Origin: a virus
Taxonomy: Duplodnaviria; Heunggongvirae; Uroviricota; Caudoviricetes
Strand: one strand, 5' to 3'
Length of the DNA stretch: 13,518 nt
Virus record (IMG/VR): IMGVR_UViG_2541047745_000013
The number at the start of each line of letters is the position of its first letter. The first letter of the stretch is position 1. The position numbers and the translations under genes were made by a program. Of the stretch, positions 1-13,518 are shown piece by piece. The notes below the pieces were generated by a model. It made no database searches, was not told the DNA's origin, and was given only the letters and a program-made list of their open reading frames with translations.

Positions 1-819
1 ATGCGATTAGCCAGTCGTTTTGGTTATGCGAACCAGGTACGTCGTGATCGTCCGCTGACACACGAAGAACTGATGCGCCATGTACCGAGTATTTTTGGGG
101 AAGACCGACATACCTCCCGCAGTGAACACTATGCGTACATTCCCACTATCACCGTCCTGGAAAATCTGCAGCAGGAAGGCTTTCAGCCATTCTTCGCCTG
201 CCAGACCCGCGTACGTGACCCGGGCCGCCGGGGATACACAAAACACATGCTGCGCCTGCGCCGTAACGGGGAGATAAACGGACAACATGTCCCTGAAATT
301 ATTCTGCTCAACTCCCATGACGGTACCTCCAGCTACCAGATGCTGCCGGGTTACTTCAGATTCGTCTGCCAGAACGGCTGCGTCTGCGGTCAGTCTCTGG
401 GGGAAGTCCATGTGCCCCACCGGGGAAATGTGGTGGACAGAGTCATTGAAGGGGCTCACGAGGTAGTGGGCGTTTTTGACCGGATTGAGGAAAAGCGTGA
501 TGCCATGCAGTCTCTGGTTCTGCCGCCACCGGCACGTCAGGCACTGGCACAGGCGGCGCTGACTTACCGTTATGGTGATGAACATCAACCCGTCACCACT
601 GCCGACATTCTGACACCACGACGCCGGGAGGATTACGGTAAGGACCTGTGGAGCGCATATCAGACCATCCAGGAGAATATGCTGAAAGGCGGGATTTCCG
701 GCCGTAGTGCAAAAGGAAAACGTATCCATACCCGCGCCATTCACAGTATCGACACCGACATCAAGCTCAATCGCGCATTGTGGGTGATGGCGGAAACGCT
801 GCTGGAGAGTATGCGCTGA
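1..819 (+). CDS. DUF932-domain protein (YfjQ/YafZ family)
   Basis: 272-codon ORF with ATG at window position 1 and TGA at 817-819. The translation (MRLASRFG ... NRALWVMAETLLESMR) matches my recollection of YfjQ-type proteins. Upstream context is not visible, so the start cannot be verified. Confidence 0.8.
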   Translation: MRLASRFGYANQVRRDRPLTHEELMRHVPSIFGEDRHTSRSEHYAYIPTITVLENLQQEGFQPFFACQTRVRDPGRRGYTKHMLRLRRNGEINGQHVPEIILLNSHDGTSSYQMLPGYFRFVCQNGCVCGQSLGEVHVPHRGNVVDRVIEGAHEVVGVFDRIEEKRDAMQSLVLPPPARQALAQAALTYRYGDEHQPVTTADILTPRRREDYGKDLWSAYQTIQENMLKGGISGRSAKGKRIHTRAIHSIDTDIKLNRALWVMAETLLESMR

Positions 820-910
820 TGTTGTTTCCCTGAAAGTGCAACCCTGACTCACGTCTGTATCAGTCCCCAGGCATTCTTCCATTCATTTGCTTTTTATAAG
901 GAATAGTCTC

Positions 911-1396
911 ATGACAACCTCTTCGCATAATTCCACCACACCTTCTGTTTCCGTAACAACTGCATCAGGGAATAACCAGTCTCAACTGGTTGCCACTCCT
1001 GTCCCTGATGAACAGCGCATCAGTTTCTGGCCGCAGCATTTTGGCCTCATTCCACAGTGGGTGACCCTGGAGCCCCGTGTCTTCGGCTGGATGGACCGTC
1101 TGTGCGAAGACTACTGCGGTGGTATCTGGAATCTGTACACCCTGAACAACGGCGGGGCATTTATGGCCCCTGAACCGGATGGCGATGATGACGAAACATG
1201 GGTACTGTTCAATGCCATGAACGGTAACCGCGCTGAAATGAGCCCGGAAGCCGCCGGCATTGCCGCCTGTCTGATGACGTACAGCCATCACGCCTGCCGT
1301 ACGGAGTGTTATGTCATGACGGTTCATTATTACCGTCTGCGGGATTACGCCCTGCAGCATCCGGAATGCAGCGCCATTATGCGCATCATTGACTGA
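911..1396 (+). CDS. Antirestriction-family protein (YfjX/YafX-like)
   Basis: The open frame begins at TTG 887, but ATG 911 has an AAGGA 9 nt upstream and gives the MTT... N-terminus expected for this family. TGA stop at 1394-1396. Conserved-looking core WPQHFGLIPQWV ... GGIWNLYTLNNGG. Confidence 0.8.
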   Translation: MTTSSHNSTTPSVSVTTASGNNQSQLVATPVPDEQRISFWPQHFGLIPQWVTLEPRVFGWMDRLCEDYCGGIWNLYTLNNGGAFMAPEPDGDDDETWVLFNAMNGNRAEMSPEAAGIAACLMTYSHHACRTECYVMTVHYYRLRDYALQHPECSAIMRIID

Positions 1397-1411
1397 AAGG
1401 GGGCCGGAACA

Positions 1412-1888
1412 ATGCAACAGATTTCCTTTCTGCCCGGAGAAATGACAACCAGAGAGCGCAGCCTCATTCAGCGGGCCCTGAAAGCCCTGGACCGCCATCT
1501 TCATGAACCCGGCGTGGCCTTCACCTCCACCCGTGCGGCACGGGAATGGCTGATTCTGAACATGGCGGGACTGGAGCGTGAAGAATTCCGGGTGCTGTAT
1601 CTGAATAACCAGAATCAGCTGATTGCCGGTGAAACCCTCTTCACCGGCACCATCAACCGCACGGAAGTCCATCCCCGGGAGGTGATTAAACGCGCCCTGT
1701 ACCACAATGCCGCTGCCGTGGTGCTGGCACACAATCACCCGTCCGGTGAAGTCACACCCAGCAAGGCAGACCGCCTTATCACGGAACGTCTGGTACAGGC
1801 ACTGGGCCTGGTGGATATCCGGGTACCGGACCATCTGATAGTCGGTGGCAGCCAGGTTTTCTCCTTTGCGGAACACGGCCTGCTTTAA
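1412..1888 (+). CDS. RadC-like JAB/MPN-domain protein (YeeS/YfjY/YkfG family)
   Basis: 158-aa ORF with AGGGGG ribosome-binding site upstream of ATG 1412. Contains the HNHPSG JAMM-type motif (…VVLAHNHPSGEVTPSKAD…). TAA stop at 1886-1888. Confidence 0.9.
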   Translation: MQQISFLPGEMTTRERSLIQRALKALDRHLHEPGVAFTSTRAAREWLILNMAGLEREEFRVLYLNNQNQLIAGETLFTGTINRTEVHPREVIKRALYHNAAAVVLAHNHPSGEVTPSKADRLITERLVQALGLVDIRVPDHLIVGGSQVFSFAEHGLL

Positions 1889-1956
1889 CCCGTCACCGTC
1901 ACAACCACATCACACCTGTTTTCACTTTTATCTTCTGTCTTCAGAGGTATCCCATC

Positions 1957-2178
1957 ATGAAAATCATCACCCGTGGTGAAGCCATGCGTATTCACCGTCA
2001 GCATCCGGCATCCCGTCTTTTCCCGTTCTGTACCGGCAAATACCGCTGGCACGGCAGCACTGAAGCGTATACCGGTCGTGAAGTGCAGGATATTCCCGGT
2101 GTGCTGGCCGTGTTTGCTGAACGTCGTAAGGACAGTTTTGGCCCGTATGTCCGGCTGATGAGCGTCACCCTGAACTGA
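1957..2178 (+). CDS. DUF987-domain protein (YeeT/YpjJ/YkfH family)
   Basis: 73-aa ORF MKIITRGEAMRIHRQHP…RLMSVTLN, at the expected position between the RadC-like gene and the antitoxin. Confidence 0.8.
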   Translation: MKIITRGEAMRIHRQHPASRLFPFCTGKYRWHGSTEAYTGREVQDIPGVLAVFAERRKDSFGPYVRLMSVTLN

Positions 2179-2291
2179 TGTTCCGTCACCCGGAAAACGA
2201 GTACGACTGGCTGAGCTCAGACGCCGCTGTGGATGAGGCCCTGCTCATAAACGAATACACCTTTACCGAAGGCGGTCTGCGCGCCGGCTGA
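2178..2291 (+). CDS. Candidate 37-aa small ORF coupled to the DUF987 gene (speculative)
   Basis: ATG at 2178-2180 overlaps the DUF987 TGA (2176-2178) in a TGATG arrangement. Reads MFRHPENEYDWLSSDAAVDEALLINEYTFTEGGLRAG, stop TGA 2289-2291. No ribosome-binding site other than coupling; may be a remnant. Confidence 0.2.
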   Translation: MFRHPENEYDWLSSDAAVDEALLINEYTFTEGGLRAG

Positions 2292-2340
2292 CCTGTCATC
2301 GTTAAACCATTCTTAACCGATTTTCTGTGAGGATTTTATC

Positions 2341-2709
2341 GTGTCAGACGCACTCTCCGGGACAATGCTTCCCGACGACAATCACGACCGCCCCTGGTGG
2401 GGGCTGCCCTGCACCGTGACGCCCTGTTTCGGGGCACGTCTGGTGCAGGAGGGTAACCGCCTGCATTACCTTGCCGACCGCGCCGGTATCAGAGGCCTGT
2501 TCAGCGATGCAGATGCGTACCACCTGGACCAGGCCTTTCCGCTGCTGATGAAACAACTGGAACTCATGCTCACCAGCGGTGAACTGAATCCCCGCCATCA
2601 GCATACCGTCACGCTGTATGCAAAAGGTCTGACCTGCAAAGCTGACACTCTCGGTAGCGGTGGTTACGTTTATCTGGCTGTTTATCCGACGCCCGAAACG
2701 AAAAAGTAA
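2341..2709 (+). CDS. cbeA: Type IV toxin-antitoxin antitoxin CbeA (YeeU family)
   Basis: GTG start at 2341 with GAGGA about 8 nt upstream. The 122-aa translation ([49 protein letters not shown]…) closely matches my recollection of E. coli YeeU/CbeA. Confidence 0.9.
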
Positions 2710-2798
2710 ACCACCGGAATAATCGTCTGTTCCGGCCCGGTGCATTACAGCACCACTCTTCCCACAATTTACTCTCTCATATCAGGAATATCTTCAGT

Positions 2799-3176
2799 AT
2801 GAAAACATTACCCGACACACACGTACGGGAGGCATCGCGCTGCCTGTCTCCGGTTGAAATCTGGCAGACACTGCTCACCCGGTTACTGGACCAGCACTAC
2901 GGCCTCACACTGAATGACACACCGTTCGCTGATGAACGTGTGATTGAGCAGCATATTGAAGCAGGGATTTCACTGTGTGACGCGGTGAACTTTCTCGTTG
3001 AAAAATACGCCCTGGTGCGTACCGACCAGCCGGGATTCAGCCCCTGTACCCGCTCTCAGTTAATCAACAGTATCGATATCCTCCGGGCACGCCGGGCAAC
3101 CGGCCTGATGACCCGCGATAACTACAGAACGGTAAATAACATTACCCGGGGTAAGCATCCGGAGGCGAAACAATGA
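2799..3176 (+). CDS. cbtA: Type IV toxin-antitoxin toxin CbtA (YeeV/YkfI/YpjF family)
   Basis: 125-aa ORF with the conserved core [52 protein letters not shown] as recalled for YeeV. Lies immediately downstream of cbeA. Confidence 0.9.
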
Positions 3177-3661
3177 AACTGGCCCTGACGCCGGAAGCCG
3201 ATAGCATTAACGTGCAGGCACTGAACATGGGGCGCATTGTCGTTGACGTCGATGGTGTTACTCTCGCTGAACTGATTAACGTGGTCTGTGATAATGGCCA
3301 CTCCCTTCGTATTGTTGATGAATCTGACCGGGCCTCAACAGACTGCATGCCACCATTTGCTGCCCTTACCGGTATACGCTGCAGTACCGCACATATCACG
3401 GAAACGGACAACGCCTGGCTGTACTCGCTGTCACACCAGACTAATGACGACGGCGAATCAGAATGGATTCATTTTACCGGCAGCGGCTATCTGTTACGTA
3501 CTGATACGTGGCCGTATCCGGTTCTGCGGCTTAAACGACTGGGCCTGTCCAGAACGTTCCGCCGTCTGGTTGTCACTCTCATCCGCCGTTATGGCGTCAG
3601 TCTCATTCATCTGGATGCCAGTGCCAGATGCCTGCCGGGTTTACCCACTTTCAACTGGTAA
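3173..3661 (+). CDS. YeeW-like protein (DUF-type family that follows cbtA in CP4-type islands)
   Basis: 162-aa ORF whose ATG (3173-3175) overlaps the cbtA stop (ATGA at 3173-3176). Assignment rests on position and gene order, not on a recognised motif. Confidence 0.65.
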
Positions 3662-3672
3662 CCAGGAACAAC

Positions 3673-3870
3673 ATGAAATCATTAACCACGGAAACCGCAC
3701 TGGATATTCTGATTGCGTGGCTGCAGGACAATATCGACTGCGAATCGGGGATTATCTTCGACAACGATGAGGATAAAACGGATTCGGCAGCACTGCTGCC
3801 CTGTATTGAACAGGCCAGGGAAGATATCCGTACCCTGCACCAGTTGCAGTTTCTGCAACAGAACTGGTGA
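3673..3870 (+). CDS. DUF957-domain small protein
   Basis: ATG 3673 preceded by AGGA at 3663-3666. 65-aa product MKSLTTETALDILIAWLQDNIDCESGIIFDNDEDKTD…; the longer frame from 3628 lies inside the previous gene and is less likely. TGA stop 3868-3870. Confidence 0.7.
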   Translation: MKSLTTETALDILIAWLQDNIDCESGIIFDNDEDKTDSAALLPCIEQAREDIRTLHQLQFLQQNW

Positions 3871-3899
3871 GTCTTACTCACCAGACTTCATTCCACTGA

Positions 3900-3931
3900 C
3901 GCCAGCCTGAACAGGGCTGGCGTTTTCATTT
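3900..3931 (+). terminator. Rho-independent terminator after the cbeA-cbtA-yeeW-DUF957 block
   Basis: 7-bp GC-rich stem CGCCAGC (3900-3906) / GCTGGCG (3916-3922) with a 9-nt loop, followed by TTTTCATTT. Confidence 0.7.
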
Positions 3932-3984
3932 ATCTGCAAAAAGGAATATCGATTATATCTGAACTCACAGCCTCCCGTCCGGAA

Positions 3985-4809
3985 GTGGTCAACGGACATA
4001 CGGACGTTATCGGCTCAACCAGTATCCGCCACATTCTGGCTGTACGACAGAGTACATTGCTGCAAATCGACACACTTATCCGGCAACTGGCTGAAATCTC
4101 AGCAATGACAGTAAGTATTGGCGGTAAAACTGCACTGGACTGGGCCATGAAACAGGATTTTCGCTGCGGTTTCTGGCTGATGGAGAAACCTGAAATCGCA
4201 ATGAAAGCCATCACCCGGAATCTCGATCGCGAACTCTGGCGTGACCTGATGCAACGTTCCGGGATGCTTTCCTTAATGGATGCACAGGCCCGTGAGACAT
4301 GGTACCGGTCACTGGAGTACGATAATGTCCCGGAAATCAGTGAAGCAAACATTCTGAACACATTTAAACAACTGCACCAGAATAAGGATGAGGTGTTTGA
4401 GCGAGGGGTGATCAACGTCTTCAGGGGACTGAACTGGAATTACAAAACCAATTTACCCTGCAAATTTGGCAGTAAAATTATCGTCAACAATCTGGTGAGA
4501 TGGGACCGGTGGGGATTTCATATTGTCACCGGACAGCAGGCTGACCGGGTTGCTGACCTGGAAAGGATGCTGCACCTGTTCAGCGGCTGGCCCATCCCCG
4601 ACAACCGGGAAAATATCATCATCCGTCTGGATGACCACATTCAGTCCGCTCAGGGTCAGGAGTGCTATGAATATGAAGATGAGATGTTCAGCATCAGATA
4701 CTTTAAGAAGGGCTCCGCGCACATCACGTTCAGAAAACCGGAACTGATTGATCGGCTAAATGACATCATTGCGAAGTATTATCCAGAAATAATCCCATAC
4801 AATATCTAA
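3985..4809 (+). CDS. DUF4942-domain protein (conserved terminal gene of CP4-type islands); start codon uncertain
   Basis: 274-codon ORF ending TAA 4807-4809. The first canonical start in frame is GTG 3985 with no convincing ribosome-binding site; the frame is open back to 3871. Family call from recall of the gene order CbtA / YeeW-like / DUF957 / DUF4942. Confidence 0.65.
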   Translation: MVNGHTDVIGSTSIRHILAVRQSTLLQIDTLIRQLAEISAMTVSIGGKTALDWAMKQDFRCGFWLMEKPEIAMKAITRNLDRELWRDLMQRSGMLSLMDAQARETWYRSLEYDNVPEISEANILNTFKQLHQNKDEVFERGVINVFRGLNWNYKTNLPCKFGSKIIVNNLVRWDRWGFHIVTGQQADRVADLERMLHLFSGWPIPDNRENIIIRLDDHIQSAQGQECYEYEDEMFSIRYFKKGSAHITFRKPELIDRLNDIIAKYYPEIIPYNI

Positions 4810-4853
4810 TAAAACTAATCATTTCTTGTTGTGACTGATTTAGTTGAACCATA

Positions 4854-4899
4854 CTGCATGGTCGAGTAGACAGGGTATCTCAGACCATGCATGTATTTT
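4854..4899. terminator. Possible bidirectional terminator between convergent DUF4942 gene and integrase
   Basis: Inverted repeat TGCATGGTC (4854-4862) / GACCATGCA (4882-4890) followed by TTTTT (4895-4899). The 19-nt loop is long for an intrinsic terminator. Confidence 0.3.
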
Positions 4900-4901
4900 T
4901 A

Positions 4902-6221
4902 TCATCTGTTCCCAAATTTTATATGAATAACATTATCCGGAGCATTCTGCTGCACAGTAATGACGTTATTCATAATAAAATTCCCCCATTCTATAAATAA
5001 ATTTTTTAATTTTTCAGCTTGTTGTCCGACTTGATATGTTCGTATTAAACGGTCTTTGGGTACATGATTTAACAGTAACTCTATTAGGCGCTCTGGAGCA
5101 TCAAGGTATTCAGCGCATCCAGTCGCAACACTTCTACGCAGATCATGAGGAGAAAATGGAGTAAGTTCGGCTAGATACTTAGAGCGAACCCTTTCTAACG
5201 CGCGAGTCAGAGCGTCATTTGTGATGGGAAAGTCAGGTTTGCTAGTAGAACCAAAAACATATGCACCTTCAGTGAATTCACGTTGTGTTTTTATTAAAGA
5301 AAGCATATACGGATGTAAAGTAACAATATGGCTTTTCCCATTTTTAGTGGCTGGTATGGTCCAACGCTCTCCATTAATTTGATCCCAGCGCATTTGTGCC
5401 GCTTCAGAGCGGCGCACTCCTGTGAAAATAATCAAACGGAGTGCATTTGCGACAGAATGAGATAATACCACACTAGAGGAAATTCCATAGCCACCAGATG
5501 CAATGGAGCCTCCTCCAACAGTAGCATCATCCAAAGCCTTCCATAGCATCCGGAGTTCATTCTCAGGAAGCCATCGCTCGCGAGGTTTATTCATCGATGC
5601 ACCAAACATTGCTGGTTTGAGCAGTCGTGCTGGGTTATGCTCAAGCATACCCTGTAAGTTGGCATGATCAAGAGTCATATTTAGAATAATTAATCCTTTA
5701 CGAACTGCTTCAGAACTGGTTTTTCTTACATTACTGAGATGTTCAAAAATAACGCTTTTGGTAAGTTCGTCAATGCGAAGGTTTCCTAATGCTTTTTCAA
5801 GGTGGCGGTGATAAGTCCCTTCATAATCTGCAAGGGTTCTGGTGCTAATTGGTTTGCTTGTCTTTCTGAATTCTATCCAATCTTTCCATAATTCAGAGTA
5901 AATAATCATTTGTTCATTTTTTTGTTTTTCATTTTTTCTAATATGACGAGGATCTATACCTTTTCTTACTAATTCAATTGCATCCGCATGAGCTTTACGA
6001 GCTTGAGCTAATCCCATGGCAGGGTAACTACCTAGTGTTAATTTAGCTGGCTTTTGAGCTATTCGATAACGATAAATCCAGCTTTTATTGTCGCTACCAT
6101 AACGAACGCGTATAAAGAGTCCTCCCCCAGCTTTAGATTTTACAGCAAATAAGATTTCTTTTTCTTCTTTAGTAACGGTCAATGAAGCCAATTGTCTGTC
6201 TTGTGTAATAGTAAAAGTCAT
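4902..6221 (-). CDS. Tyrosine recombinase / phage integrase (P4-type; plausibly IntF-like of CP4-6-type islands)
   Basis: Open frame 4902-6257 on the - strand. Preferred start is the ATG at 6221-6219 (MTFTITQ…), which places the GGGL arm-binding motif at a typical distance; ATG 6257 is the alternative. C-terminal catalytic signature is present (…RRSEAAQ…, HDLRRSVAT, LNHV, RTYQ). Sampled 60-nt stretches are about 37-40% GC versus 52-60% in flanking genes. Confidence 0.9.
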   Translation of the reverse strand: MTFTITQDRQLASLTVTKEEKEILFAVKSKAGGGLFIRVRYGSDNKSWIYRYRIAQKPAKLTLGSYPAMGLAQARKAHADAIELVRKGIDPRHIRKNEKQKNEQMIIYSELWKDWIEFRKTSKPISTRTLADYEGTYHRHLEKALGNLRIDELTKSVIFEHLSNVRKTSSEAVRKGLIILNMTLDHANLQGMLEHNPARLLKPAMFGASMNKPRERWLPENELRMLWKALDDATVGGGSIASGGYGISSSVVLSHSVANALRLIIFTGVRRSEAAQMRWDQINGERWTIPATKNGKSHIVTLHPYMLSLIKTQREFTEGAYVFGSTSKPDFPITNDALTRALERVRSKYLAELTPFSPHDLRRSVATGCAEYLDAPERLIELLLNHVPKDRLIRTYQVGQQAEKLKNLFIEWGNFIMNNVITVQQNAPDNVIHIKFGNR

Positions 6222-6386
6222 ATCTTCAGCCTTTTGGGTACACAGCGGGGTACACATTTAACATGATATCATCAGAAACAAGGCGAAACATCTTGATACT
6301 GCATTTGTGTGTATTTTATTGATTTTTATATATTTTTTATTGTATGTTGAAACGGCTGTGAACATCTTGAATCACTGGTCTCGCTA

Positions 6387-6432
6387 ATTCGTAATGCGAA
6401 GGTCGTAGGTTCGACTCCTATTATCGGCACCA
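6387..6432 (+). other. 3' 46 nt of tRNA-Thr(CGU) (thrW-type): pseudo-tRNA / att core copy
   Basis: ATTCGTAATGCGAAGGTCGTAGGTTCGACTCCTATTATCGGCACCA matches the anticodon loop, T-arm, 3' acceptor strand and CCA of E. coli thrW as I recall it. The upstream sequence has no complementary 5' acceptor strand (GCCGATA) or D-arm, so this is not an intact tRNA. Confidence 0.85.
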
Positions 6433-6448
6433 TTCAAACATCTCCCCA

Positions 6449-6597
6449 AGTCTACTAAAGTCTTTCAAAACCCCTTATAATCCACGTATTAAAGCCCCGT
6501 TCGTCTTTTGACGTCTACTAAAGCCCCTCAAAATCTACGGTCAGATGGGGGTACTTATGGGGGTATTTGCTGTTCGGTTTAGTGGAGGTACCCCCAA
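6449..6597 (+). promoter_or_regulatory. Direct and inverted repeats between att core and integrase start (candidate arm-type / regulatory sites)
   Basis: TCTACTAAAG at 6451-6460 and again at 6515-6524, each followed by a (T/C)-rich tract then TCAAAA. TAAAGCCCC at 6490-6498 and 6518-6526. GGGGGTA twice (6547-6566) and the inverted complement GTACCCCC at 6587-6594, beside the GGAGG ribosome-binding site. Confidence 0.4.
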
Positions 6598-7812
6598 GTG
6601 AAACTCAATGCCCGTCAAATAGACACAGCCAAGCCAAAAGAGAAGGCTTACAAGCTGGCCGATGGTGGCGGTTTGTATCTCTTGGTAAAACCTAATGGAG
6701 GTAAATACTGGCGACTTAAATATCGTGTAGCTGGTAAAGAGAAGCTATTGGCACTAGGTGTGTATCCTGAGGTTACTCTAGCCGATGCTCGGGCAAAACG
6801 TGAAGATGCGAAAAGAGGTATCGCTGGTGGTATCGATCCGATGGAAGCGAAACGAGAGGAAAAGATTGCCCGGGAAACGCAGTTAAACAACACCTTCAAA
6901 GATATTGCCCTTGAGTGGCACAGCAGCAAATTAAAAAAATGGTCTGCTGGTTATGCTTCAGACATCCTCGAAGCCTTCAACAAAGATGTGTTCCCTTACA
7001 TTGGCAAAAAACCAATCGCCGAAATCAAACCACTTGAACTTCTGAATGTGCTGCGGCGCATCGAGGGGCGCGGTGCGACAGAAAAAGCCAAAAAAGTGAG
7101 GCAGCGGTGCGGGGAAGTTTTCCGCTATGCAATAGTCACTGGTCGCGCAGAGTATAACCCTGCACCAGACCTTACTAGCGCGATGCAAGGCCATGAATCT
7201 AATCATTACCCTTTCCTTACGACCAAAGAATTACCTGATTTTTTCAAGGCATTATCCAGTTACTCAGGAAGCGCATTGGTTGTTATGGCGGCTCGTCTAC
7301 TGATTATCACCGGCTTGCGAACTGGCGAACTACGTGGCGCATTATGGGATGAAATTGATTTCAACAAGGCTATATGGGAGATACCCGCTTCACGTATGAA
7401 AATGCGGCGGCCTCATATTGTGCCATTGTCTGAGCAGGCTCTTTCGCTTATTGGGAAGATTAGAGAAATAACAGGCAATTACCCTCTTATGTTTCCCGGG
7501 CGCAATGATCCAAGGAAAACAATGAGTGAGGCCAGCATAAACCAAGTGTTTAAGCGCATTGGCTACGCTGGACGTGTAACTGGTCATGGGTTCCGACACA
7601 CTATGAGCACGATTTTGCATGAGCAGGGCTATAACACCGCGTGGATAGAAACGCAGCTCGCTCACGTTGATAAGAACTCAATTCGTGGCACATACAACCA
7701 TGCGCAATATCTGGATGGACGGCGGGAGATGCTTCAATGGTATGCCGACTATATGGATTCTCTCGAGCATGGCGGAAATGTGGTGCATATGGTGTTTGAA
7801 AAACACGCATGA
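6598..7812 (+). CDS. Tyrosine recombinase / phage integrase (P4 / CP4-57 IntA-like)
   Basis: 404-aa ORF with GTG start at 6598 and GGAGG at 6582-6586. N-terminal arm-binding-like region (KPKEKAYKLADGGGLYLLVKPNGGKYWRLKYR…LGVYPEVTLADAR). C-terminal signature GLRTGELRG, HGFRHT, and the terminal tyrosine region AHVDKNSIRGTYNH. TGA stop 7810-7812. Confidence 0.9.
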   Translation: MKLNARQIDTAKPKEKAYKLADGGGLYLLVKPNGGKYWRLKYRVAGKEKLLALGVYPEVTLADARAKREDAKRGIAGGIDPMEAKREEKIARETQLNNTFKDIALEWHSSKLKKWSAGYASDILEAFNKDVFPYIGKKPIAEIKPLELLNVLRRIEGRGATEKAKKVRQRCGEVFRYAIVTGRAEYNPAPDLTSAMQGHESNHYPFLTTKELPDFFKALSSYSGSALVVMAARLLIITGLRTGELRGALWDEIDFNKAIWEIPASRMKMRRPHIVPLSEQALSLIGKIREITGNYPLMFPGRNDPRKTMSEASINQVFKRIGYAGRVTGHGFRHTMSTILHEQGYNTAWIETQLAHVDKNSIRGTYNHAQYLDGRREMLQWYADYMDSLEHGGNVVHMVFEKHA

Positions 7813-8062
7813 AACAACTGGACAAGTATACAGAGGTTTACTAAAGTATAGGGGAGTAGATTGATAAAAACTCACAGAGGATTGCTATTTAACAGTTAGC
7901 CCTGGAGAAGGGCAATCGCTCTTTTATAAACGAAGGTGTATTGAGCCTTCTACGCTGCTGAAAAGCGGAATGTTCTTTAACAGGCTTTGGCGCTGACAAA
8001 GCGCAATTGTTCTTTAAAACTACTGGATGTCACGCCTAATAGCGTGATCCTGCCGAAATGCA

Positions 8063-8076
8063 GGGTAGCTCTACCC
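8063..8076. promoter_or_regulatory. 14-bp palindrome GGGTAGCTCTACCC (candidate operator)
   Basis: Half-sites GGGTAG and CTACCC, perfectly inverted, in the int-alpA intergenic region. Confidence 0.3.
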
Positions 8077-8117
8077 TTGTGGAGCAAACAAACCAAAACA
8101 ATCTGACTATCTTTTAT

Positions 8118-8153
8118 AAAAGACCGCAATATGTTTTTCATATTGTGGTCTTT
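8118..8153. promoter_or_regulatory. 15-bp-arm palindrome AAAGACCGCAATATG-TTTTT-CATATTGTGGTCTTT (candidate operator or hairpin) upstream of alpA
   Basis: Arms differ at a single position around a TTTTT centre, about 90 bp upstream of the alpA ATG. The motif CTTTTATAAA immediately precedes it and also occurs at 7921-7930. Confidence 0.4.
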
Positions 8154-8239
8154 GGCGTATTCGACATTTGACGCAAATAAAACTCTCGCCATTCGTTGCA
8201 GGAGGGGGTTATTGCGTCATTAGTACAGGATATTAATAA

Positions 8240-8443
8240 ATGGCTAATTACAATTCATTAATTCGTCTCTCTGAAGTTCAAAGGCGAACTGGTTATAGCA
8301 AAGCATGGATTTATCGTCTTATTAGTCAGGGGAGGTTCCCTAAACAGGTAAAAATTGGAAGTCGGGCAATTGCTTTTGTTGAGTCTGAAATAGATGAATG
8401 GATTGAGAAGTGTATATTAGAATCTAGAGACGAGGTGGCCTGA
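8240..8443 (+). CDS. alpA: AlpA-family phage regulatory protein / excisionase-like helix-turn-helix protein
   Basis: 67-aa ORF with AGGA 9 nt upstream of the ATG. Motif IRLSEVQRRTGYSKAWIYRLISQGRFPKQVKIGSRAIAFVESEIDEWI matches the AlpA/Vis-type pattern. Confidence 0.85.
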   Translation: MANYNSLIRLSEVQRRTGYSKAWIYRLISQGRFPKQVKIGSRAIAFVESEIDEWIEKCILESRDEVA

Positions 8444-8874
8444 TGGAAAAGAAAAACCGCCCATTACAGGCGGCTAATTCAGATATTCGCGTATCTGATG
8501 TTACGCCCCTGACAAAATCCCTTCAAGCACCAAAGCGCACGCCGAAAAAGCATCGTGCCCGAGTCTATATGCTGCGTACTGGTATAGAGGGATGGACAGA
8601 AAATGACATTCTTCGCTACTGCCGTCTGTCTTCTGGTCGTAACTATGCAACAGAGTTAGAACGCCAGCTCGGAATCACTCTGGAGCGTATCGACGAAAAG
8701 AATCCTGATGGTATCGGAACACACCTTCGCTACCGTTTCTCCTGCCGTGGTGATGTTCTGAAAGTGATCACTCATATTAACCATCTTGCGAACATAAATG
8801 ATCACAACGGACTTTCTCAGCAGGAAATTGCCGACATTCTGAAACTCTACCCGGACGCGTTTAACGCCGCCTAA
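8443..8874 (+). CDS. Hypothetical protein (143 aa), translationally coupled to alpA
   Basis: ATG at 8443 overlaps the alpA TGA (TGATG). The translation looks like ordinary protein; no family recognised. Confidence 0.6.
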   Translation: MEKKNRPLQAANSDIRVSDVTPLTKSLQAPKRTPKKHRARVYMLRTGIEGWTENDILRYCRLSSGRNYATELERQLGITLERIDEKNPDGIGTHLRYRFSCRGDVLKVITHINHLANINDHNGLSQQEIADILKLYPDAFNAA

Positions 8875-8886
8875 CGGAGACTGAAA

Positions 8887-9720
8887 ATGAACATCGAAAA
8901 AAGCAGATTAATTTCTGAGGCTGCCCCTCATCTGAACGCCTCTCTGGGCACAATTAACGGTAATGAATTTGCCGCAATTGTCCCGGTTATTCCTGGTCAT
9001 ATCGGTGGGCGTGAAACCAATATTGTTAGCGCAAAAGCGTTACACAAAGCGTTGGGCGTGGGAAAAGACTTCTCTACATGGATCACTGATCGCATCTCTG
9101 AATATGACTTCACCATTGGGCACGATTACTCAGTCCATAAAACTATTTCCCCAAATTTGGGGAAAATCCCGAATGGCGCGGCTTACAGCAAGATTAAGCA
9201 GTCTGGAAGACCCGGCAAAGACTATCTGTTAAGTGTCGGAATGGCGAAAGAACTGGCAATGATCGAACGCAATGATCAGGGGCGCGCTATCCGCCGTTAT
9301 TTCATCCAGTGCGAGGAAGAATTACAGCGTAGCGTGCCTGAAATCGCCGCCCGCTATCGTCGCCAGCTAAAAGCCCGTATCAGTGCCGCAAACAACTTTA
9401 AGCCAATGTGCGATGCGCTGAATATGGCCCGTGCCGAGATGGGGAAAACGACGCAGCAACACCACTACACAAACGAGAGCAATATGATTTCTCGTATCGT
9501 TCTTGGTGGGCTAACTGCTAAGCAGTGGGCGCGGATAAATGGCTATTCTGGCGAACCTCGCGACCATATGAACGCAGAACAGCTTGAGCACCTCTCATAT
9601 CTCGAAAGCACCAATATCACGTTAATTGATATGGGCATGGAATATGAGCAGCGCAAAGGAGAACTCACCCGCCTGTCGCAACGCTGGCTCGCTAAGCGTC
9701 TGGAGGCGGTCCATGTTTAA
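8887..9720 (+). CDS. Phage antirepressor-like protein (AntA-domain-like N-terminal region)
   Basis: 277-aa ORF with GGAG upstream. The region …ALHKALGVGKDFSTWITDRISEYDFTIGHDY…GRPGKDYLLSVGMAKELAMIERNDQGRAIRRYFIQCEEEL resembles AntA-type antirepressor domains as I recall them; not verified by search. Confidence 0.55.
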   Translation: MNIEKSRLISEAAPHLNASLGTINGNEFAAIVPVIPGHIGGRETNIVSAKALHKALGVGKDFSTWITDRISEYDFTIGHDYSVHKTISPNLGKIPNGAAYSKIKQSGRPGKDYLLSVGMAKELAMIERNDQGRAIRRYFIQCEEELQRSVPEIAARYRRQLKARISAANNFKPMCDALNMARAEMGKTTQQHHYTNESNMISRIVLGGLTAKQWARINGYSGEPRDHMNAEQLEHLSYLESTNITLIDMGMEYEQRKGELTRLSQRWLAKRLEAVHV

Positions 9721-9895
9721 GCCGACAGGAACACCACAACCTCAAAAACGCTACAAAGATGCCCACGGAGCACTCGTTACTGTCGAAAGCGTGTCTCACA
9801 ACCGAGTGACGTTTTATCGCGACGGGTATCAATCGCCATGCGTACAACCGCTGGCACGTTTCATGAAGGAGTTCGCGGAGGTTAACAAATGCTAA
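9713..9895 (+). CDS. Small hypothetical protein (60 aa; possibly DUF4222-like)
   Basis: ATG 9713 with GGAGG at 9702-9706, overlapping the upstream TAA (9718-9720). Product [60 protein letters not shown]. Confidence 0.55.
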   Translation: MFKPTGTPQPQKRYKDAHGALVTVESVSHNRVTFYRDGYQSPCVQPLARFMKEFAEVNKC

Positions 9896-10956
9896 CCGCC
9901 CAGAAGAAGACATTTTCACTGGCTGGTATGTCGCCAAAATCCAGCAATATGACAGCAAAGTCAGGCATTAATACAGCAGATACAAGCAAAGTTTATCATT
10001 TGCTGGTGGTAGGAGCGGATGCCTTAACTATGTCAGAAATTACGGTCGATGGTGTTAGCGTTGAGAAGGTCAGCGGCTGCGCCAGAGAATTTCTGGTCGT
10101 AGATGGCTTTCTCTGCTCGCGTAGTGACTCCACAAAAACCTTCGTCCACGCGCGTGACGTTAACGAAATGAGCGCGATGTACTGTGCTTCTGGTTCTTCC
10201 AATAGTGAGTTTTCGGAGTCCATAAAAAAGAGCTTGCCGTTATGCGGCAACACGGTTTATGGTTATAAGGCACCTCATAAAACGGGTGCCGGGATTGGCG
10301 TCCTGGTAAATCGAATGGCGACATATGACGCGCCGAGCGTCTTTTTTTATGTCGTAGGTCTGACTCACCCATTTTTTGGGCGTTGGTGTATAATCCAGCG
10401 CCTTTGTCAATCAATGGTGGCTCAGGCAGGGGCTTCTTCGGAAGCGCCGGTATCCATTCGAGCCGGTTACGCCAACCCTGTCTGGGCTACCACCAGCGAA
10501 ATTGGCGTTTCCGGTGGTAGCGTTACATGCTATCGAATGGAGGCTGCCACATGCTGGCTACTACCCCTACCCAAAAACCGCAATTTATCTGGATTATCGC
10601 CGCAGTTCGCCGCGATTGCCCGACAATTACCGCCAAAATTCATCATATTGCTGCCGAGTCTGAACGCGATGCTCGCCGTTCTCTGGTGCGCGATCACGTC
10701 TGCTTTTTTGCTGGTCGTATCCGCATGGAGGTGGCACATGATTAAAACCTACGATGTGCATATGGATCCCCTCGAACGCACAAGCCAGATCATCACACTG
10801 ACAGAAGTGATTAACGACATTCTGGTGAGCAACTCTCCCTCACGAGACGAAAGACTGAAGGCGTTACTCGCGATATTGGATCTCGCCGTTCGTGACGTTC
10901 ATTTCCTGCTGGAAGGTGGCGAAATGCCAGTAAAAACGGGGGAAACCAATGAATAA
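9889..10956 (+). CDS. ORF of unresolved extent: strong coupled start at 9889, frame open for 355 codons through a terminator-like hairpin, a promoter-like element and the Icd-like gene
   Basis: ATG 9889 with GGAGG at 9877-9881 overlaps the upstream stop. The other two + frames have many stops across 9889-10330. The first roughly 145 codons look coding; beyond about 10330 the translation is A/S/G/L/P-rich and resembles off-frame reading. No in-frame stop until 10954-10956. Confidence 0.3.
10327..10348 (+). terminator. Candidate intrinsic terminator (short GC stem plus T7 run)
   Basis: GACGC (10327-10331), loop GCCGA, GCGTC (10337-10341), then TTTTTTT (10342-10348). The stem is only 5 bp. Confidence 0.35.
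10360..10394 (+). promoter_or_regulatory. Candidate sigma70 promoter (perfect -10 TATAAT with upstream TG; weak -35) for the icd-like operon
   Basis: TATAAT at 10389-10394 preceded by TG at 10387-10388 and a T-rich tract at 10372-10377. No good TTGACA at 17-bp spacing. Confidence 0.35.
10400..10530 (+). ncRNA. Candidate structured leader / immunity-type antisense RNA region (P1 c4 / P4 CI-like by position) upstream of the icd-like gene
   Basis: Hairpin GCTTC-TTCG-GAAGC at 10432-10445 (UUCG tetraloop closed by C-G). A 9-bp stem GCTACCACC (10486-10494) / GGTGGTAGC (10513-10521) with an 18-nt loop. A related motif TGGTGGCTCAGG at 10415-10426. Translation of this stretch looks non-protein-like. 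Confidence 0.3.
10551..10745 (+). CDS. Host cell-division inhibitor Icd-like small protein
   Basis: ATG 10551 with GGAGG at 10540-10544. 64-aa product [64 protein letters not shown] resembles Icd-like proteins of P4-type prophages as I recall them. TAA stop 10743-10745. Confidence 0.55.
   Translation: MLATTPTQKPQFIWIIAAVRRDCPTITAKIHHIAAESERDARRSLVRDHVCFFAGRIRMEVAHD
10738..10956 (+). CDS. Hypothetical small protein (72 aa)
   Basis: ATG 10738 with GGAGG at 10727-10731 overlaps the icd-like stop. Acidic, helical-looking product. Same frame as the long 9889 ORF. Confidence 0.5.
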   Translation: MIKTYDVHMDPLERTSQIITLTEVINDILVSNSPSRDERLKALLAILDLAVRDVHFLLEGGEMPVKTGETNE

Positions 10957-11143
10957 CTCAATTAATACCCCTCGCCTTACGTCCGCACTTCAATTAATCG
11001 AGCAAGCAGCGGCTGTCCTGGTTGCTGTCAGTCTTTCGGCTGAAGAAATGGACGCTACTGATGTCGTGGATGCGATTAAAGCGTGCTCATCTTTGGTTAA
11101 CGATGCCCGTGCAGAGCTGGTAATTCTTGGGGGTGAAAAATGA
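10949..11143 (+). CDS. Hypothetical small protein (64 aa)
   Basis: ATG 10949 with GGGGGA upstream overlaps the previous stop by 8 nt. Product [64 protein letters not shown]. Confidence 0.55.
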   Translation: MNNSINTPRLTSALQLIEQAAAVLVAVSLSAEEMDATDVVDAIKACSSLVNDARAELVILGGEK

Positions 11144-11403
11144 ATATCAACTTAATTTATCGTCATCCGTGTGAGCTGGAAATTGAATCATTGCTGAGCC
11201 GTGAAGAGCCATATCCAGACACATTCACTCTTGCAGATCGCACGACTGAACGGCTTACCAGAGCGCGCACAGGTCTGGTTCATGTGATGAATGAGATTCT
11301 TCCATCGGTGGGAGGGGAACAGGCGACAGTAATCACTAGCTGGCTACAAAAAGTTACCTCTCTGATAGATATCAGTTTAATCGATGCGGAGAGTGCGAAA
11401 TGA
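11140..11403 (+). CDS. Hypothetical protein (87 aa)
   Basis: ATGA overlap with the previous stop at 11140-11143; G-rich ribosome-binding site upstream. Confidence 0.6.
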   Translation: MNINLIYRHPCELEIESLLSREEPYPDTFTLADRTTERLTRARTGLVHVMNEILPSVGGEQATVITSWLQKVTSLIDISLIDAESAK

Positions 11404-11621
11404 CCAACATCCAGCTCATTGAAGCGCAATGTCGCATCGAACAGGTTCAGACTGTTTTAGGGTTCTGGCTTGAAGGGGCCAGCCCCAGCAACAGAGACAA
11501 GTTAATGATTGGCGCGGTTATGTCACTGCTCAATGGCGTACCAGAAGCTATTCAGGAAGCAGACGAATTGTTGGGCAAATATGAGTTACAGAATCATTCA
11601 GGCGAGGCGAAACATGAATAA
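11400..11621 (+). CDS. Hypothetical protein (73 aa)
   Basis: ATGA overlap at 11400-11403; GGAG 8 nt upstream. Confidence 0.6.
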   Translation: MTNIQLIEAQCRIEQVQTVLGFWLEGASPSNRDKLMIGAVMSLLNGVPEAIQEADELLGKYELQNHSGEAKHE

Positions 11622-12216
11622 TTTCTTAACTTTCCATGCAGAAGCAACGCCTGACGGCGTAAACATCATGCACCGCAGCAACGATGGCATGACAGAACGC
11701 GTTGAGACCGTCTCATATATTGATGCCGTAAATCGTCTGGATGCCGGGGATTATGACGATAAACCAGATGAAGGCATGTCAATACATCTCGCTATAGCCG
11801 ATGGCGGCAACCAGGGATATTTCGATTACACATCACAGCATAACGTCATTATGTGGAGATGGCTGATCGCAACAGTATTCATGCTGGAAATGAGAGAGGA
11901 AAACGGCACTGTCAGCATCATTGATGATACTGGCAATCCTTCCGAAGTGGCTGTTTATTCCAACGGCATCGTCGCCATGCCGCTGTATCCAGTAGCAGAG
12001 CGCCTCGCTATGGCAAACAACATTGAGGGCGCGATGATAGAACGTTTTGGCATCGAGTCTGGCACAGAACGCGCCATCATTTTCTACAGAGCCATGATGG
12101 ATGTGGAACAAGGAGCACTGACTCCATTTGGTCGTGAAACGCTTGCTGAACTTCACAACAGCTTTATAGCTGAACTGAATGAAAACGGCATGCCAGCGGA
12201 ACCAGTGACGCACTGA
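11614..12216 (+). CDS. Hypothetical protein (200 aa)
   Basis: ATG 11614 with GAGG at 11604-11607, overlapping the previous gene by 8 nt. The track ORF beginning 11509 is the same frame read through the upstream gene. No family recognised. Confidence 0.6.
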   Translation: MNNFLTFHAEATPDGVNIMHRSNDGMTERVETVSYIDAVNRLDAGDYDDKPDEGMSIHLAIADGGNQGYFDYTSQHNVIMWRWLIATVFMLEMREENGTVSIIDDTGNPSEVAVYSNGIVAMPLYPVAERLAMANNIEGAMIERFGIESGTERAIIFYRAMMDVEQGALTPFGRETLAELHNSFIAELNENGMPAEPVTH

Positions 12217-12226
12217 GGATGGAGCC

Positions 12227-12568
12227 ATGATTACTAAAAATTTCCGACTGAATGCGCTGGCAAATAAGTATGCGTCGGCACTGTATAACCACATTACCTC
12301 CACCAGCGGCGGGGACTATTTCATGGTTGATGCGGACGGCGAGGCCGTACGTGTGGAAATCGTCAATGGAGTAAAAGGCGTTCGCAGCCTGATCGATAGC
12401 TACACACTGGCAGCCATGAAAGTGTTCTACCCGCAGTGGGAAACCGTGGGGATCGAGCTTCTTGATCGTTGCGTCACTAAGGACGGATTGACTGACGTCG
12501 GGCGTGAGATATGGCAAAGCATGGTTAATGACATGGGCGCAACTGTAGCGGGAGGTTCTCATGCGTGA
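12227..12568 (+). CDS. Hypothetical protein (113 aa)
   Basis: ATG 12227 with GAGGA at 12216-12220. No family recognised. Confidence 0.6.
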   Translation: MITKNFRLNALANKYASALYNHITSTSGGDYFMVDADGEAVRVEIVNGVKGVRSLIDSYTLAAMKVFYPQWETVGIELLDRCVTKDGLTDVGREIWQSMVNDMGATVAGGSHA

Positions 12569-12932
12569 AAATGCAGAAATGGCGCTTAGCTCCGCAATCG
12601 GAGAGCAGGTGGCAAAGATTGCTGGTGCTGTGTGGATTCATAACCTTCATTCTACTGGTGAAGAGAAAATGGCAATTCAGACGCCAGAGGGACGCACCAT
12701 TACTACATCTCTGAAGCCGTCAGATGTTTGTGATCTGATTTGCGCATTCATGTACCCAGCAATGAGGACTGCCCACGGCGATAAGTGGAAACTTGCGACA
12801 ACCGCTGAATTTGATATGTGGCTAAACAATGATGGCATGCTGACTGATTACGGAATAACCAAGTGGCAGATGCTGGTTAGCCATATCGCAAACGCTATAG
12901 ACCACGTGGGGTACGGTGATGCGAAACATTGA
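12561..12932 (+). CDS. Hypothetical protein (123 aa)
   Basis: ATG 12561 with GGAGG at 12551-12555, overlapping the previous stop by 8 nt. Confidence 0.6.
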   Translation: MRENAEMALSSAIGEQVAKIAGAVWIHNLHSTGEEKMAIQTPEGRTITTSLKPSDVCDLICAFMYPAMRTAHGDKWKLATTAEFDMWLNNDGMLTDYGITKWQMLVSHIANAIDHVGYGDAKH

Positions 12933-13518
12933 TCTTATCCGTCAGGTTATCAGTGCGTCTGAAAACAACTGGCCTCATGTGCTGGGCTGCCTGAACATAA
13001 ATGTCCCTGACTCTCCGCGCCGTCATGCTCCCTGCCCTGCATGTGGGGGCAAAGATCGATTCCGGTTCGATGACAACGGGCGCGGTAGCTTCATCTGTAA
13101 TCAGTGCGGCGCTGGTGATGGGCTGGATTTAATTAAACGCGTAAATAACTGCGACACAACAGAGGCGGCGCTTCTTGCCGCTGATGTTCTGGGTATTGAT
13201 TACCGGACAACGGAAACACCAGAAGCCACCAGCCAGAAACGGGAACAACTGGAAACCGAGCGCCAGCGACGCGAACAGGAGCGCCTGAAAAGGGCAGAGA
13301 AGGACGAACAACAAAGACGGGATACGTTTTCCCGTCAGTTTGATGACATGCGCAGAAAGGCTGTAAACGGCAAATCTGATTATCTGGTTGCGAAAGGGGT
13401 AGGTGATTTTACATTCCCCGTGTTGCCCGATGGATCTCTGTTGCTGGCGCTGGTGGATAAATCCGGCGCAGTCACAGCAGCACAGACTATTACCTCACAT
13501 GGTGAAAAAAGACTCCTG
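12919..13518 (+). CDS. DNA primase, P4 alpha / PICI Pri-type (N-terminal zinc-ribbon; 3' truncated by window end)
   Basis: ATG 12919 overlaps the upstream stop (12930-12932). My own translation gives …HAPCPACGGKDRFRFDDNGRGSFICNQCGAGDGLDLI…, the CxxC…CxxC zinc-binding motif of P4-type primases, followed by a charged ERQRREQERLKRAEKDEQQRR linker. This ORF is absent from the supplied track because it has no stop in the window. Confidence 0.85.
   Translation, partial: MRNIDLIRQVISASENNWPHVLGCLNINVPDSPRRHAPCPACGGKDRFRFDDNGRGSFICNQCGAGDGLDLIKRVNNCDTTEAALLAADVLGIDYRTTETPEATSQKREQLETERQRREQERLKRAEKDEQQRRDTFSRQFDDMRRKAVNGKSDYLVAKGVGDFTFPVLPDGSLLLALVDKSGAVTAAQTITSHGEKRLL

Follow-up and report, generated by a model that had tools for sequence, protein, structure and literature searches.

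The genes from alpA to a DUF4222 reading frame form the front of one long AlpA-driven operon in an EcCIMP1-type chromosomal island

The phage-inducible chromosomal island (PICI) EcCIMP1 was described in Escherichia coli MP1 (Pick, Stadel & Raivio 2025; PMC11773190). Its excision, replication, and transduction depend strictly on an induced helper, the P22-like phage Kapi1. Experiments showed that its mobilization needs alpA, the helper-induced master activator of the island; the alpA promoter is active only upon induction of the helper itself and is subject to positive autoregulation (PMC11773190). The island EcCICFT073 follows the same AlpA logic (PMC6092414), and Gram-negative PICIs in general consist of four zones, namely integration, Bro, replication, and late (PMC10111431). 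The left operon of the satellite P4 has the order vis/orf88, eta (with seqA and the CI RNA), epsilon, orf151, orf106, and alpha, and eta is described as combining translational coupling with antitermination by translation (PMC10111431).

We analyzed a 13,518-nucleotide stretch of Caudoviricetes DNA (IMG/VR record IMGVR_UViG_2541047745_000013; hereafter, the window), in which positions 8240-9895 contain alpA, a gene for a 143-aa protein (orf143), a gene for an AntA-like protein, and a small DUF4222 open reading frame (Table 1). The part of the window that starts at about position 6385 matches islands of roughly 20 kb that belong to one family. Homology to the EcCIMP1 family begins at 6385-6387, and positions 6387-13518 aligned to EcCIMP1 with 97.9% DNA identity across 7145 bp. 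The att core at the left end, which lies in a tRNA-Thr fragment, is identical to that published for EcCIMP1 (PMC11773190). Records that are 99.8-100% identical over 8240-9895 carry the AlpA protein WP_000035054.1, and the AlpA of EcCIMP1 has the same accession. The order of genes is also that of EcCIMP1: int, alpA, hypothetical, AntA/AntB, DUF4222, ash, icd, small ORFs, and primase. The 8240-9895 stretch is present in 674 of 5426 complete E. coli genomes.

Table 1. Features of the island portion of the window (positions are those of the whole window).
Feature	Position	Strand	Evidence or remarks
tRNA-Thr 3' fragment	about 6385-6432		terminates in CCA; encloses att core
att core TCCTATTATC	6416..6425	+	within tRNA-Thr 3' fragment; marks left island end
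P4-type tyrosine integrase (int)	6598..7812	+	Arm-DNA-bind_3, Phage_int_M, Phage_integrase
alpA, island master activator	8240..8443	+	Phage_AlpA PF05930, 7e-20
orf143, 143-aa basic protein	8443..8874	+	winged-helix-like core aa 35-100 (predicted)
AntA-like Bro-network protein, 277 aa	8887..9720	+	
Conserved leader of AntA-like protein	N-terminal, about 15 aa		
AntA head	aa 47-129, nt 9025-9273		PF08346, 1.4e-21
AntA-like C-terminal domain, unnamed, conserved	about aa 160-270, nt 9364-9696		separated from head by a long helix
DUF4222 small ORF, 60 aa	9713..9895	+	PF13973, 6e-25; overlaps both neighbors
eta/'ash'-like long ORF	9889..10956	+	Phage_ASH, aa 124-232 = nt 10258-10584
isrK-like leader RNA with intrinsic terminator	10270..10347	+	Rfam
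C4/CI-type immunity antisense RNA	10410..10497	+	Rfam, 79.5 bits
icd-like ORF	10527..10745	+	annotated Icd-like in ET565
Six small coupled ORFs (64, 87, 73, 200, 113, 123 aa)	10949..12932	+	
Primase gene start	12919..13518	+	gene cut by window end; TOPRIM + DUF927 in full copies

The first-pass annotation had described the element as satellite-like, and both the att core in the tRNA-Thr fragment and the identity to EcCIMP1 bear this out: the element is a satellite. As in other Gram-negative PICIs, int and alpA are co-oriented at the left end beside att, and the element has its own primase module and lacks capsid, tail, and lysis genes. Because the window stops within the primase gene, the absence of these structural and lysis genes was judged on four full copies of the island (L001-L004), which contain TOPRIM/DUF927 or DUF5906 and a late zone that holds ejection-protein homologues only. 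The EcCIMP1-type late zone, with P22-like ejection proteins and PerC, can be seen in these full copies but not in the window. Unlike EcCIMP1, the window copy is not beside an intact tRNA-Thr but comes after another island with its own integrase. The layout, with int and alpA followed by Bro-network genes with embedded isrK/C4 RNAs and then a primase, is that of Gram-negative PICIs in general (PMC10111431). Positions 8240-9895 are the front of an AlpA-driven operon in an EcCIMP1-type Gram-negative PICI and match the published integration and Bro zones. Earlier publications already cover the element, the order of its genes, and its dependence on a helper, and the AntA-like gene already bears the label antirepressor; the locus does not represent a new kind of system.

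All four ORFs were found in the ORF list and the sequence with the overlaps and abutments that the first-pass annotation had described. The alpA stop codon (TGA, 8441-8443) has one base in common with the orf143 ATG at 8443 (TGATG); a 12-nt spacer that includes GGAG separates 8874 from 8887; and the DUF4222 ATG at 9713 lies 8 nt into the end of the AntA-like gene (stop codon 9718-9720). The DUF4222 ORF is found in many, but not all, related loci. For the four genes, NCBIfam and PHROGs agreed with the Pfam assignments. The same annotation had grouped these genes as a coupled module. Their coupling stands; however, they do not form a self-contained unit, as coupling goes on past 9895 (9889/9895, 10949/10956, 11140/11143, 11400/11403, 11614/11621, 12561/12568, and 12919/12932), and each junction from 9895 to the primase start at 12919 is either an overlap or a 10-nt gap. 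One long operon begins with these four genes, which do not constitute a module of their own. A simple consensus scan of the + strand from 8240 to 9900 detected no promoter-like site, and we found no LexA box near alpA. The alpA promoter, which in EcCIMP1 needs an already induced helper, is probably the only promoter that serves the AntA-like gene.

Downstream of the four genes, the ORF annotated as ash family is homologous to the P4 eta open frame (2.5e-21), and its Phage_ASH match spans exactly the region of the isrK-type and C4-type RNAs, both of which are nested in the ORF. We had considered that this ORF could be a spurious translation of RNA genes; this idea was dropped, as P4 eta is a real nested gene in the same place. 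The C4 loop is complementary to 10311-10318, a seqA-like target within isrK, and to 10533-10541, a seqC-like target that starts 6 nt past the icd-like ATG. An 8-nt C4-complementary site in alpA (8396-8403) was dismissed as chance, given that about seven such sites are expected by our own estimate.

The element shares RNA-based immunity with P4: the same two RNAs occur in the same order within an eta-like frame, together with seqA/seqC-type targets of the CI/C4 RNA. The wider arrangement is also like the P4 left operon, in that an AlpA-family gene precedes an eta-like ORF with isrK-type and C4-type RNAs, followed by a primase; the N-terminus of P4 alpha matches 12937-13194. Unlike in P4, alpA and the eta-like ORF are separated by three extra cistrons (orf143, the AntA-like gene, and DUF4222). 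The six small ORFs hold the position of P4 epsilon, orf151, and orf106, and the window contains no homologues of these three genes. In the full island copies, psu, sid, and delta are not annotated.

In mechanistic terms, the coupling of the cistrons is understandable as a translation chain like that of P4 eta, which would override RNA immunity. The unbroken overlapping chain from alpA through orf143, the AntA-like gene, and DUF4222 to the eta/ash-like ORF would carry ribosomes, and ribosomes translating along it would pass through the isrK/C4 immunity-RNA region. By analogy with P4 eta transcribed from the late promoter, translation through this region should block C4-RNA-dependent termination, such that the icd-like gene, the small ORFs, and the primase would be expressed only via the helper-induced alpA transcript. 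Coupling would thus have a purpose, as an unbroken chain would do the job of P4 eta through the immunity-RNA region. One caveat applies to this analogy: P4 eta directly follows the alpA homologue, whereas here three additional cistrons stand between the two. As a whole, our best explanation combines the front of an EcCIMP1-type operon, antitermination by a translation chain, a regulator that acts after induction, and orf143 as its partner; we consider this combination reasonably probable.

The putative regulator is the product of 8887-9720. A domain search with this protein identified Pfam AntA, in keeping with the antirepressor-like label that the first-pass annotation had given it. Its homologues at 74-99% identity are all annotated as AntA/AntB antirepressor; close homologues occur in E. 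coli, Shigella, Salmonella, Citrobacter, and Klebsiella, and they hold the same position in islands whose late zones differ. At E<0.1, PF08346 was the only Pfam family found in the protein; ANT/KilAC and P22_AR_C were absent, and no Pfam model covers the C-terminal domain. The C-terminal half, used as a query, identified 418 cluster representatives. Among 105 full-length proteins with this C-terminal domain, the head was Rha in 45, KilA-N in 25, AntA in 22, and Bro-N in 3, so that 95/105 representatives bear a head of one of these four types. Judged from the sequences, such pairings of heads with one C-terminal domain are the signature of the domain-swapping Bro network.

Foldseek matches in a viral library were KilA-N, Bro, antirepressor, and T5orf172 DNA-binding proteins. 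Searches of PDB sequences with the AntA-like protein and its family profile returned nothing significant, and structural models of orf143 and the AntA-like protein were of modest confidence (pLDDT 63 and 75), with no fold match that was decisive. For AntA heads, DNA binding is a prediction made at the level of the family. The AntA-like product is a two-domain Bro-network protein and most likely a nucleic-acid-directed regulator or adaptor. Its targets would be genes of the helper or of the island once the helper has been induced, and it would probably not itself be the trigger that derepresses the helper.

We also considered whether the C-terminal half is a divergent KilAC/ANT domain: Pfam gave no match, and the hhalign comparison with the KilAC region of P1 Ant was not significant (E=0.064). 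A Klebsiella-phage homologue with 34% identity to the AntA-like protein bears KilAC, and the AntA-like protein and KilAC proteins may share very distant descent.

A scan for the orf143 family with one genome per species identified 38 enterobacterial loci. In most of them alpA is immediately upstream of orf143, and in 21 of the 38 the gene after orf143 is of the AntA type; in the rest, where the next gene was read, it encodes a protein either of the Bro-N type (195-200 aa) or of the Rha type (231 aa). A leader of about 15 aa (M.IEKSR..SEAAPQ) opens most of the Bro-N and Rha-type proteins in this slot as well as the window protein, and the slot genes finish close to the overlapping start of the following gene. 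Genes and domains are thus exchanged at one locus among related islands, as in the Bro network, and the loci identify the slot after orf143 as a swap site for Bro-network genes. Across genera, the C-terminal half of the AntA-type proteins is better conserved (75-82% identity) than the N-terminal half (50-61%). Neither the orf143 family nor the shared, conserved 15-aa leader of the slot proteins is singled out in the published survey of Gram-negative PICIs (PMC10111431). Given the dialogue between islands and helpers in Gram-negative bacteria, a defined, exchangeable regulator slot is a reasonable place to study it.

The first-pass annotation had gone further and put the AntA-like protein forward as a candidate for the role of P4 Epsilon with a different fold: an antirepressor that would target the repressor of a helper prophage residing in the cell and so induce that prophage. 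P4 epsilon does provide a precedent for a satellite that derepresses its helper, and the AntA domain and the uniform annotation of homologues agree with such a role. The P1 immI region (c4 RNA, icd, ant1/ant2) is like the window in that a C4-type RNA, an icd-like gene, and a gene named antirepressor lie in one operon; however, the P1 ant genes are downstream of C4 and under its control, whereas the AntA-like gene is upstream of the RNA. The position also differs from that of P4 epsilon, which is downstream of CI, as the AntA-like gene precedes the isrK/C4 RNAs inside the alpA transcript. P1 Ant1 has ANT/KilAC only and no AntA, and its pairwise similarity to the window protein was not significant (E=0.035).

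A further comparison is with the Ant protein of Stx phages, which combines AntA with P22_AR_C and corresponds to Phi24B Ant. The two proteins have the AntA head in common (45-47% identity over aa 31-157); however, P22_AR_C is the part of the Stx-phage protein that resembles P22 Ant, and the window protein has another, unnamed C-terminal domain in its place. Among the compared proteins with antirepressor-type evidence, only the Stx-phage Ant shares the AntA head. Two other candidate relatives were rejected: the antirepressor-like, IsrK-linked Gifsy-1 AnrP is an unrelated ORF6N protein, and N15 gp30 has Bro-N only, with similarity that was not significant. TP-J34 orf6 (AntA + ANT), which we had taken to be a validated antirepressor, was dropped as a precedent, as one published account credits Rir with induction in that phage. 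Of the features of the antirepressor class, the window protein has the N-terminal AntA domain; it has neither P22_AR_N/P22_AR_C nor ANT/KilAC, and its gene does not have immunity-RNA- or LexA-gated expression that could precede derepression. Since only the AntA head is common to Stx-phage Ant and the domains of P1 Ant1, AnrP, and N15 gp30 differ, the name antirepressor is, for the 8887-9720 product, a domain label assigned by sequence and not functional evidence.

In Phi24B, deletion of Ant delays induction, so that Ant assists induction (PMC3064807); by analogy, the window protein could have a helper-directed role. Two further observations are compatible with derepression: the swapping of slot heads could mean retargeting to other helper repressors, and a Kapi1-like prophage is present in only 2 of 21 EcCIMP1-carrying strains, so that the island would profit from an inducer with a broad range. 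The remaining evidence points the other way. The protein lacks domains in common with P1 Ant1 (ANT), N15 gp30 (Bro-N), and Gifsy-1 AnrP (ORF6N), its relation to KilAC is not significant, and it has no PDB relative by sequence. Besides the position of the gene relative to the C4 RNA, the lack of an epsilon homologue in the window, and the results of the LexA-box and promoter searches, alpA is switched on only after helper induction. Deletion of the whole EcCIMP1 island left the Kapi1 titer after mitomycin C unchanged, as well as a Kapi1 CI reporter (CI-lux) (PMC11773190). The slot is interchangeable with Bro-N and Rha-type genes, and the better conservation of the C-terminal half is contrary to an arms race with repressors. 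The step from an AntA domain name to a P4-epsilon-like helper derepressor is not supported, and we disfavor helper derepression by the AntA-like protein as unlikely. An epsilon-type role at the moment the island enters a lysogen would still be compatible with these observations. If the protein did derepress helpers, Gram-negative islands would gain a P4-like active strategy that is not currently ascribed to them.

PDC-S22, a candidate family in PADLOC, is matched by the C-terminal domain of the AntA-like protein over aa 165-266 (4e-11). EcCIMP1 confers added superinfection immunity against Kapi1, and no known defense system was found on the island (PMC11773190); the AntA-like protein, possibly with orf143, could be the interference or defense effector behind this immunity. 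We regard such a role as improbable, however, because PDC-S22 is a candidate family only, Bro-type genes are enriched in satellites and prophages anyway, and the immunity was observed in uninduced lysogens (PMC11773190), where the alpA operon should be off. An effector of this kind would be directed at phages, either superinfecting ones or the helper; repression or misregulation of their genes is one conceivable way.

For orf143, a Pfam search gave only a weak match to the winged-helix family HTH_91 (E=0.017), in agreement with the earlier statement that the 143-aa protein has no family assignment. We identified 611 homologues; Enterobacterales predominate among the matches listed (120 of the 611), and phage genomes gave no match. 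The core is strongly conserved (motif GWTENDILRY...SSGRNY), the N-terminal tail is disordered and rich in Lys/Arg, and a sequence search of the PDB returned nothing significant. The predicted topology is winged-helix-like. Based on this model, orf143 looks like a small basic winged-helix protein and is most likely a small DNA-binding partner of the AntA-like regulator.

The predicted winged-helix-like fold and basic tail would also suit an accessory factor for DNA transactions of the island, a role that orf143, the AntA-like protein, or both could have instead of regulating the helper. The genes are flanked by alpA, the regulator of excision, on one side and by the replication module on the other; across the 38 loci, orf143 keeps a tight linkage to alpA or int even where the integrase is of another type. 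On the same backbone, however, the AntA slot is taken by unrelated Bro-N and Rha genes, which would be unusual for a core factor, and we judge this role to be highly improbable. Excision directionality, origin recognition, and packaging-site recognition are candidate functions for such a factor. Both this role and that of a defense effector are lesser rivals than the antirepressor.

The conjunction of a constant orf143 with a changing neighbor allows one more reading, in which the gene in the exchangeable slot (with an AntA, Bro-N, or Rha head) would be the helper-specificity determinant of the island and orf143 its constant DNA-binding partner. Acting as an antirepressor or as a hijacker of transcription, the slot protein would induce certain resident prophages or commit them to lytic growth, either at island activation or upon entry into a lysogen. 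Taken together, these propositions seem to us quite unlikely. If they held, a swap of the head would retarget the island to another helper. Our preferred explanation remains a slot protein that would act as a regulator after helper induction.

The AntA-type, Bro-N-type, and Rha-type genes found in the slot after orf143 (the gene for a 143-aa protein downstream of alpA) at loci L019-L047 of related islands share a leader of ~15 aa, M.IEKSR..SEAAPQ, and are otherwise unrelated. Because this leader is common to such dissimilar genes, it suggests either that cassettes are exchanged by recombination at conserved flanks or that the first 45 nt hold a conserved regulatory signal. PDC-S22, a PADLOC defense-candidate family, was matched (E=4e-11) by the unnamed domain at the C-terminus of the AntA-like protein. 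Superinfection immunity has been reported for EcCIMP1, a published phage-inducible chromosomal island of E. coli MP1, and no known defense systems were found on that island (PMC11773190).

Six small coupled ORFs separate the primase from the immunity region in the window and occupy the position of epsilon, orf151, and orf106 in satellite phage P4. The only matches obtained for these ORFs were phrog_20558, phrog_2196, and phrog_1515, none of known function. Their position makes the six predicted ORFs stronger candidates for a role early after infection, for instance in manipulating the helper, than the AntA-like gene is.

Within the 355-aa ash-like ORF, the Pfam match to Phage_ASH overlaps the isrK and C4 RNA genes almost exactly; conservation of the RNA may therefore be part of what defines the Phage_ASH protein family. 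PGAP labels this ORF differently between genomes, as full-length, as a pseudogene, or as a separate Icd-like gene.

A 71-aa ORF between int and alpA falls within the helper-responsive alpA promoter region, and it may be the counterpart of EcCIMP1_002. The latter is mislabeled as UvrB in databases, and it did not complement a uvrB mutant (Pick et al., PMC11773190).

Features in the window, with strand and content
Feature	Position	Strand	Detail
Second-island tail	1-6300		DUF932, antirestriction, JAB/RadC-like, DUF987, CbeA/CbtA toxin-antitoxin, DUF5983, DUF957, DUF4942
Second-island integrase	4902-6257	minus	
tRNA-Thr fragment	~6385-6432		3' end only
71-aa ORF	7977-8192	minus	between int and alpA
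Slot leader	8887-8931		~15 aa
PDC-S22 match	9379-9684		aa 165-266 of AntA-like protein
Phage_ASH match	10258-10584		aa 124-232 of 355-aa ORF
Six small ORFs	10949-12932		64/87/73/200/113/123 aa

The region upstream of the satellite holds the tail of another island, which has its own integrase; the satellite is therefore in tandem with a further integrative element. This second island resembles the cryptic prophages CP4-44 and CP4-57. ARAGORN found no tRNA genes in the window, and tRNA-Thr is present only as a 3' fragment.

In E. coli ET565 (L002, 1-12000), the same island directly adjoins phage tail, baseplate, and tail-fiber genes and the yfdG/yfdH glucosyl-transferase genes; it therefore lies next to a prophage or forms a tandem with one. 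The enterobacterial module described here, with 82% protein identity for the orf143 product, was also identified (L025) on a contig labeled Chryseobacterium sp. 18061, a Bacteroidota genome; its presence there likely reflects contamination or mis-binning rather than real transfer.
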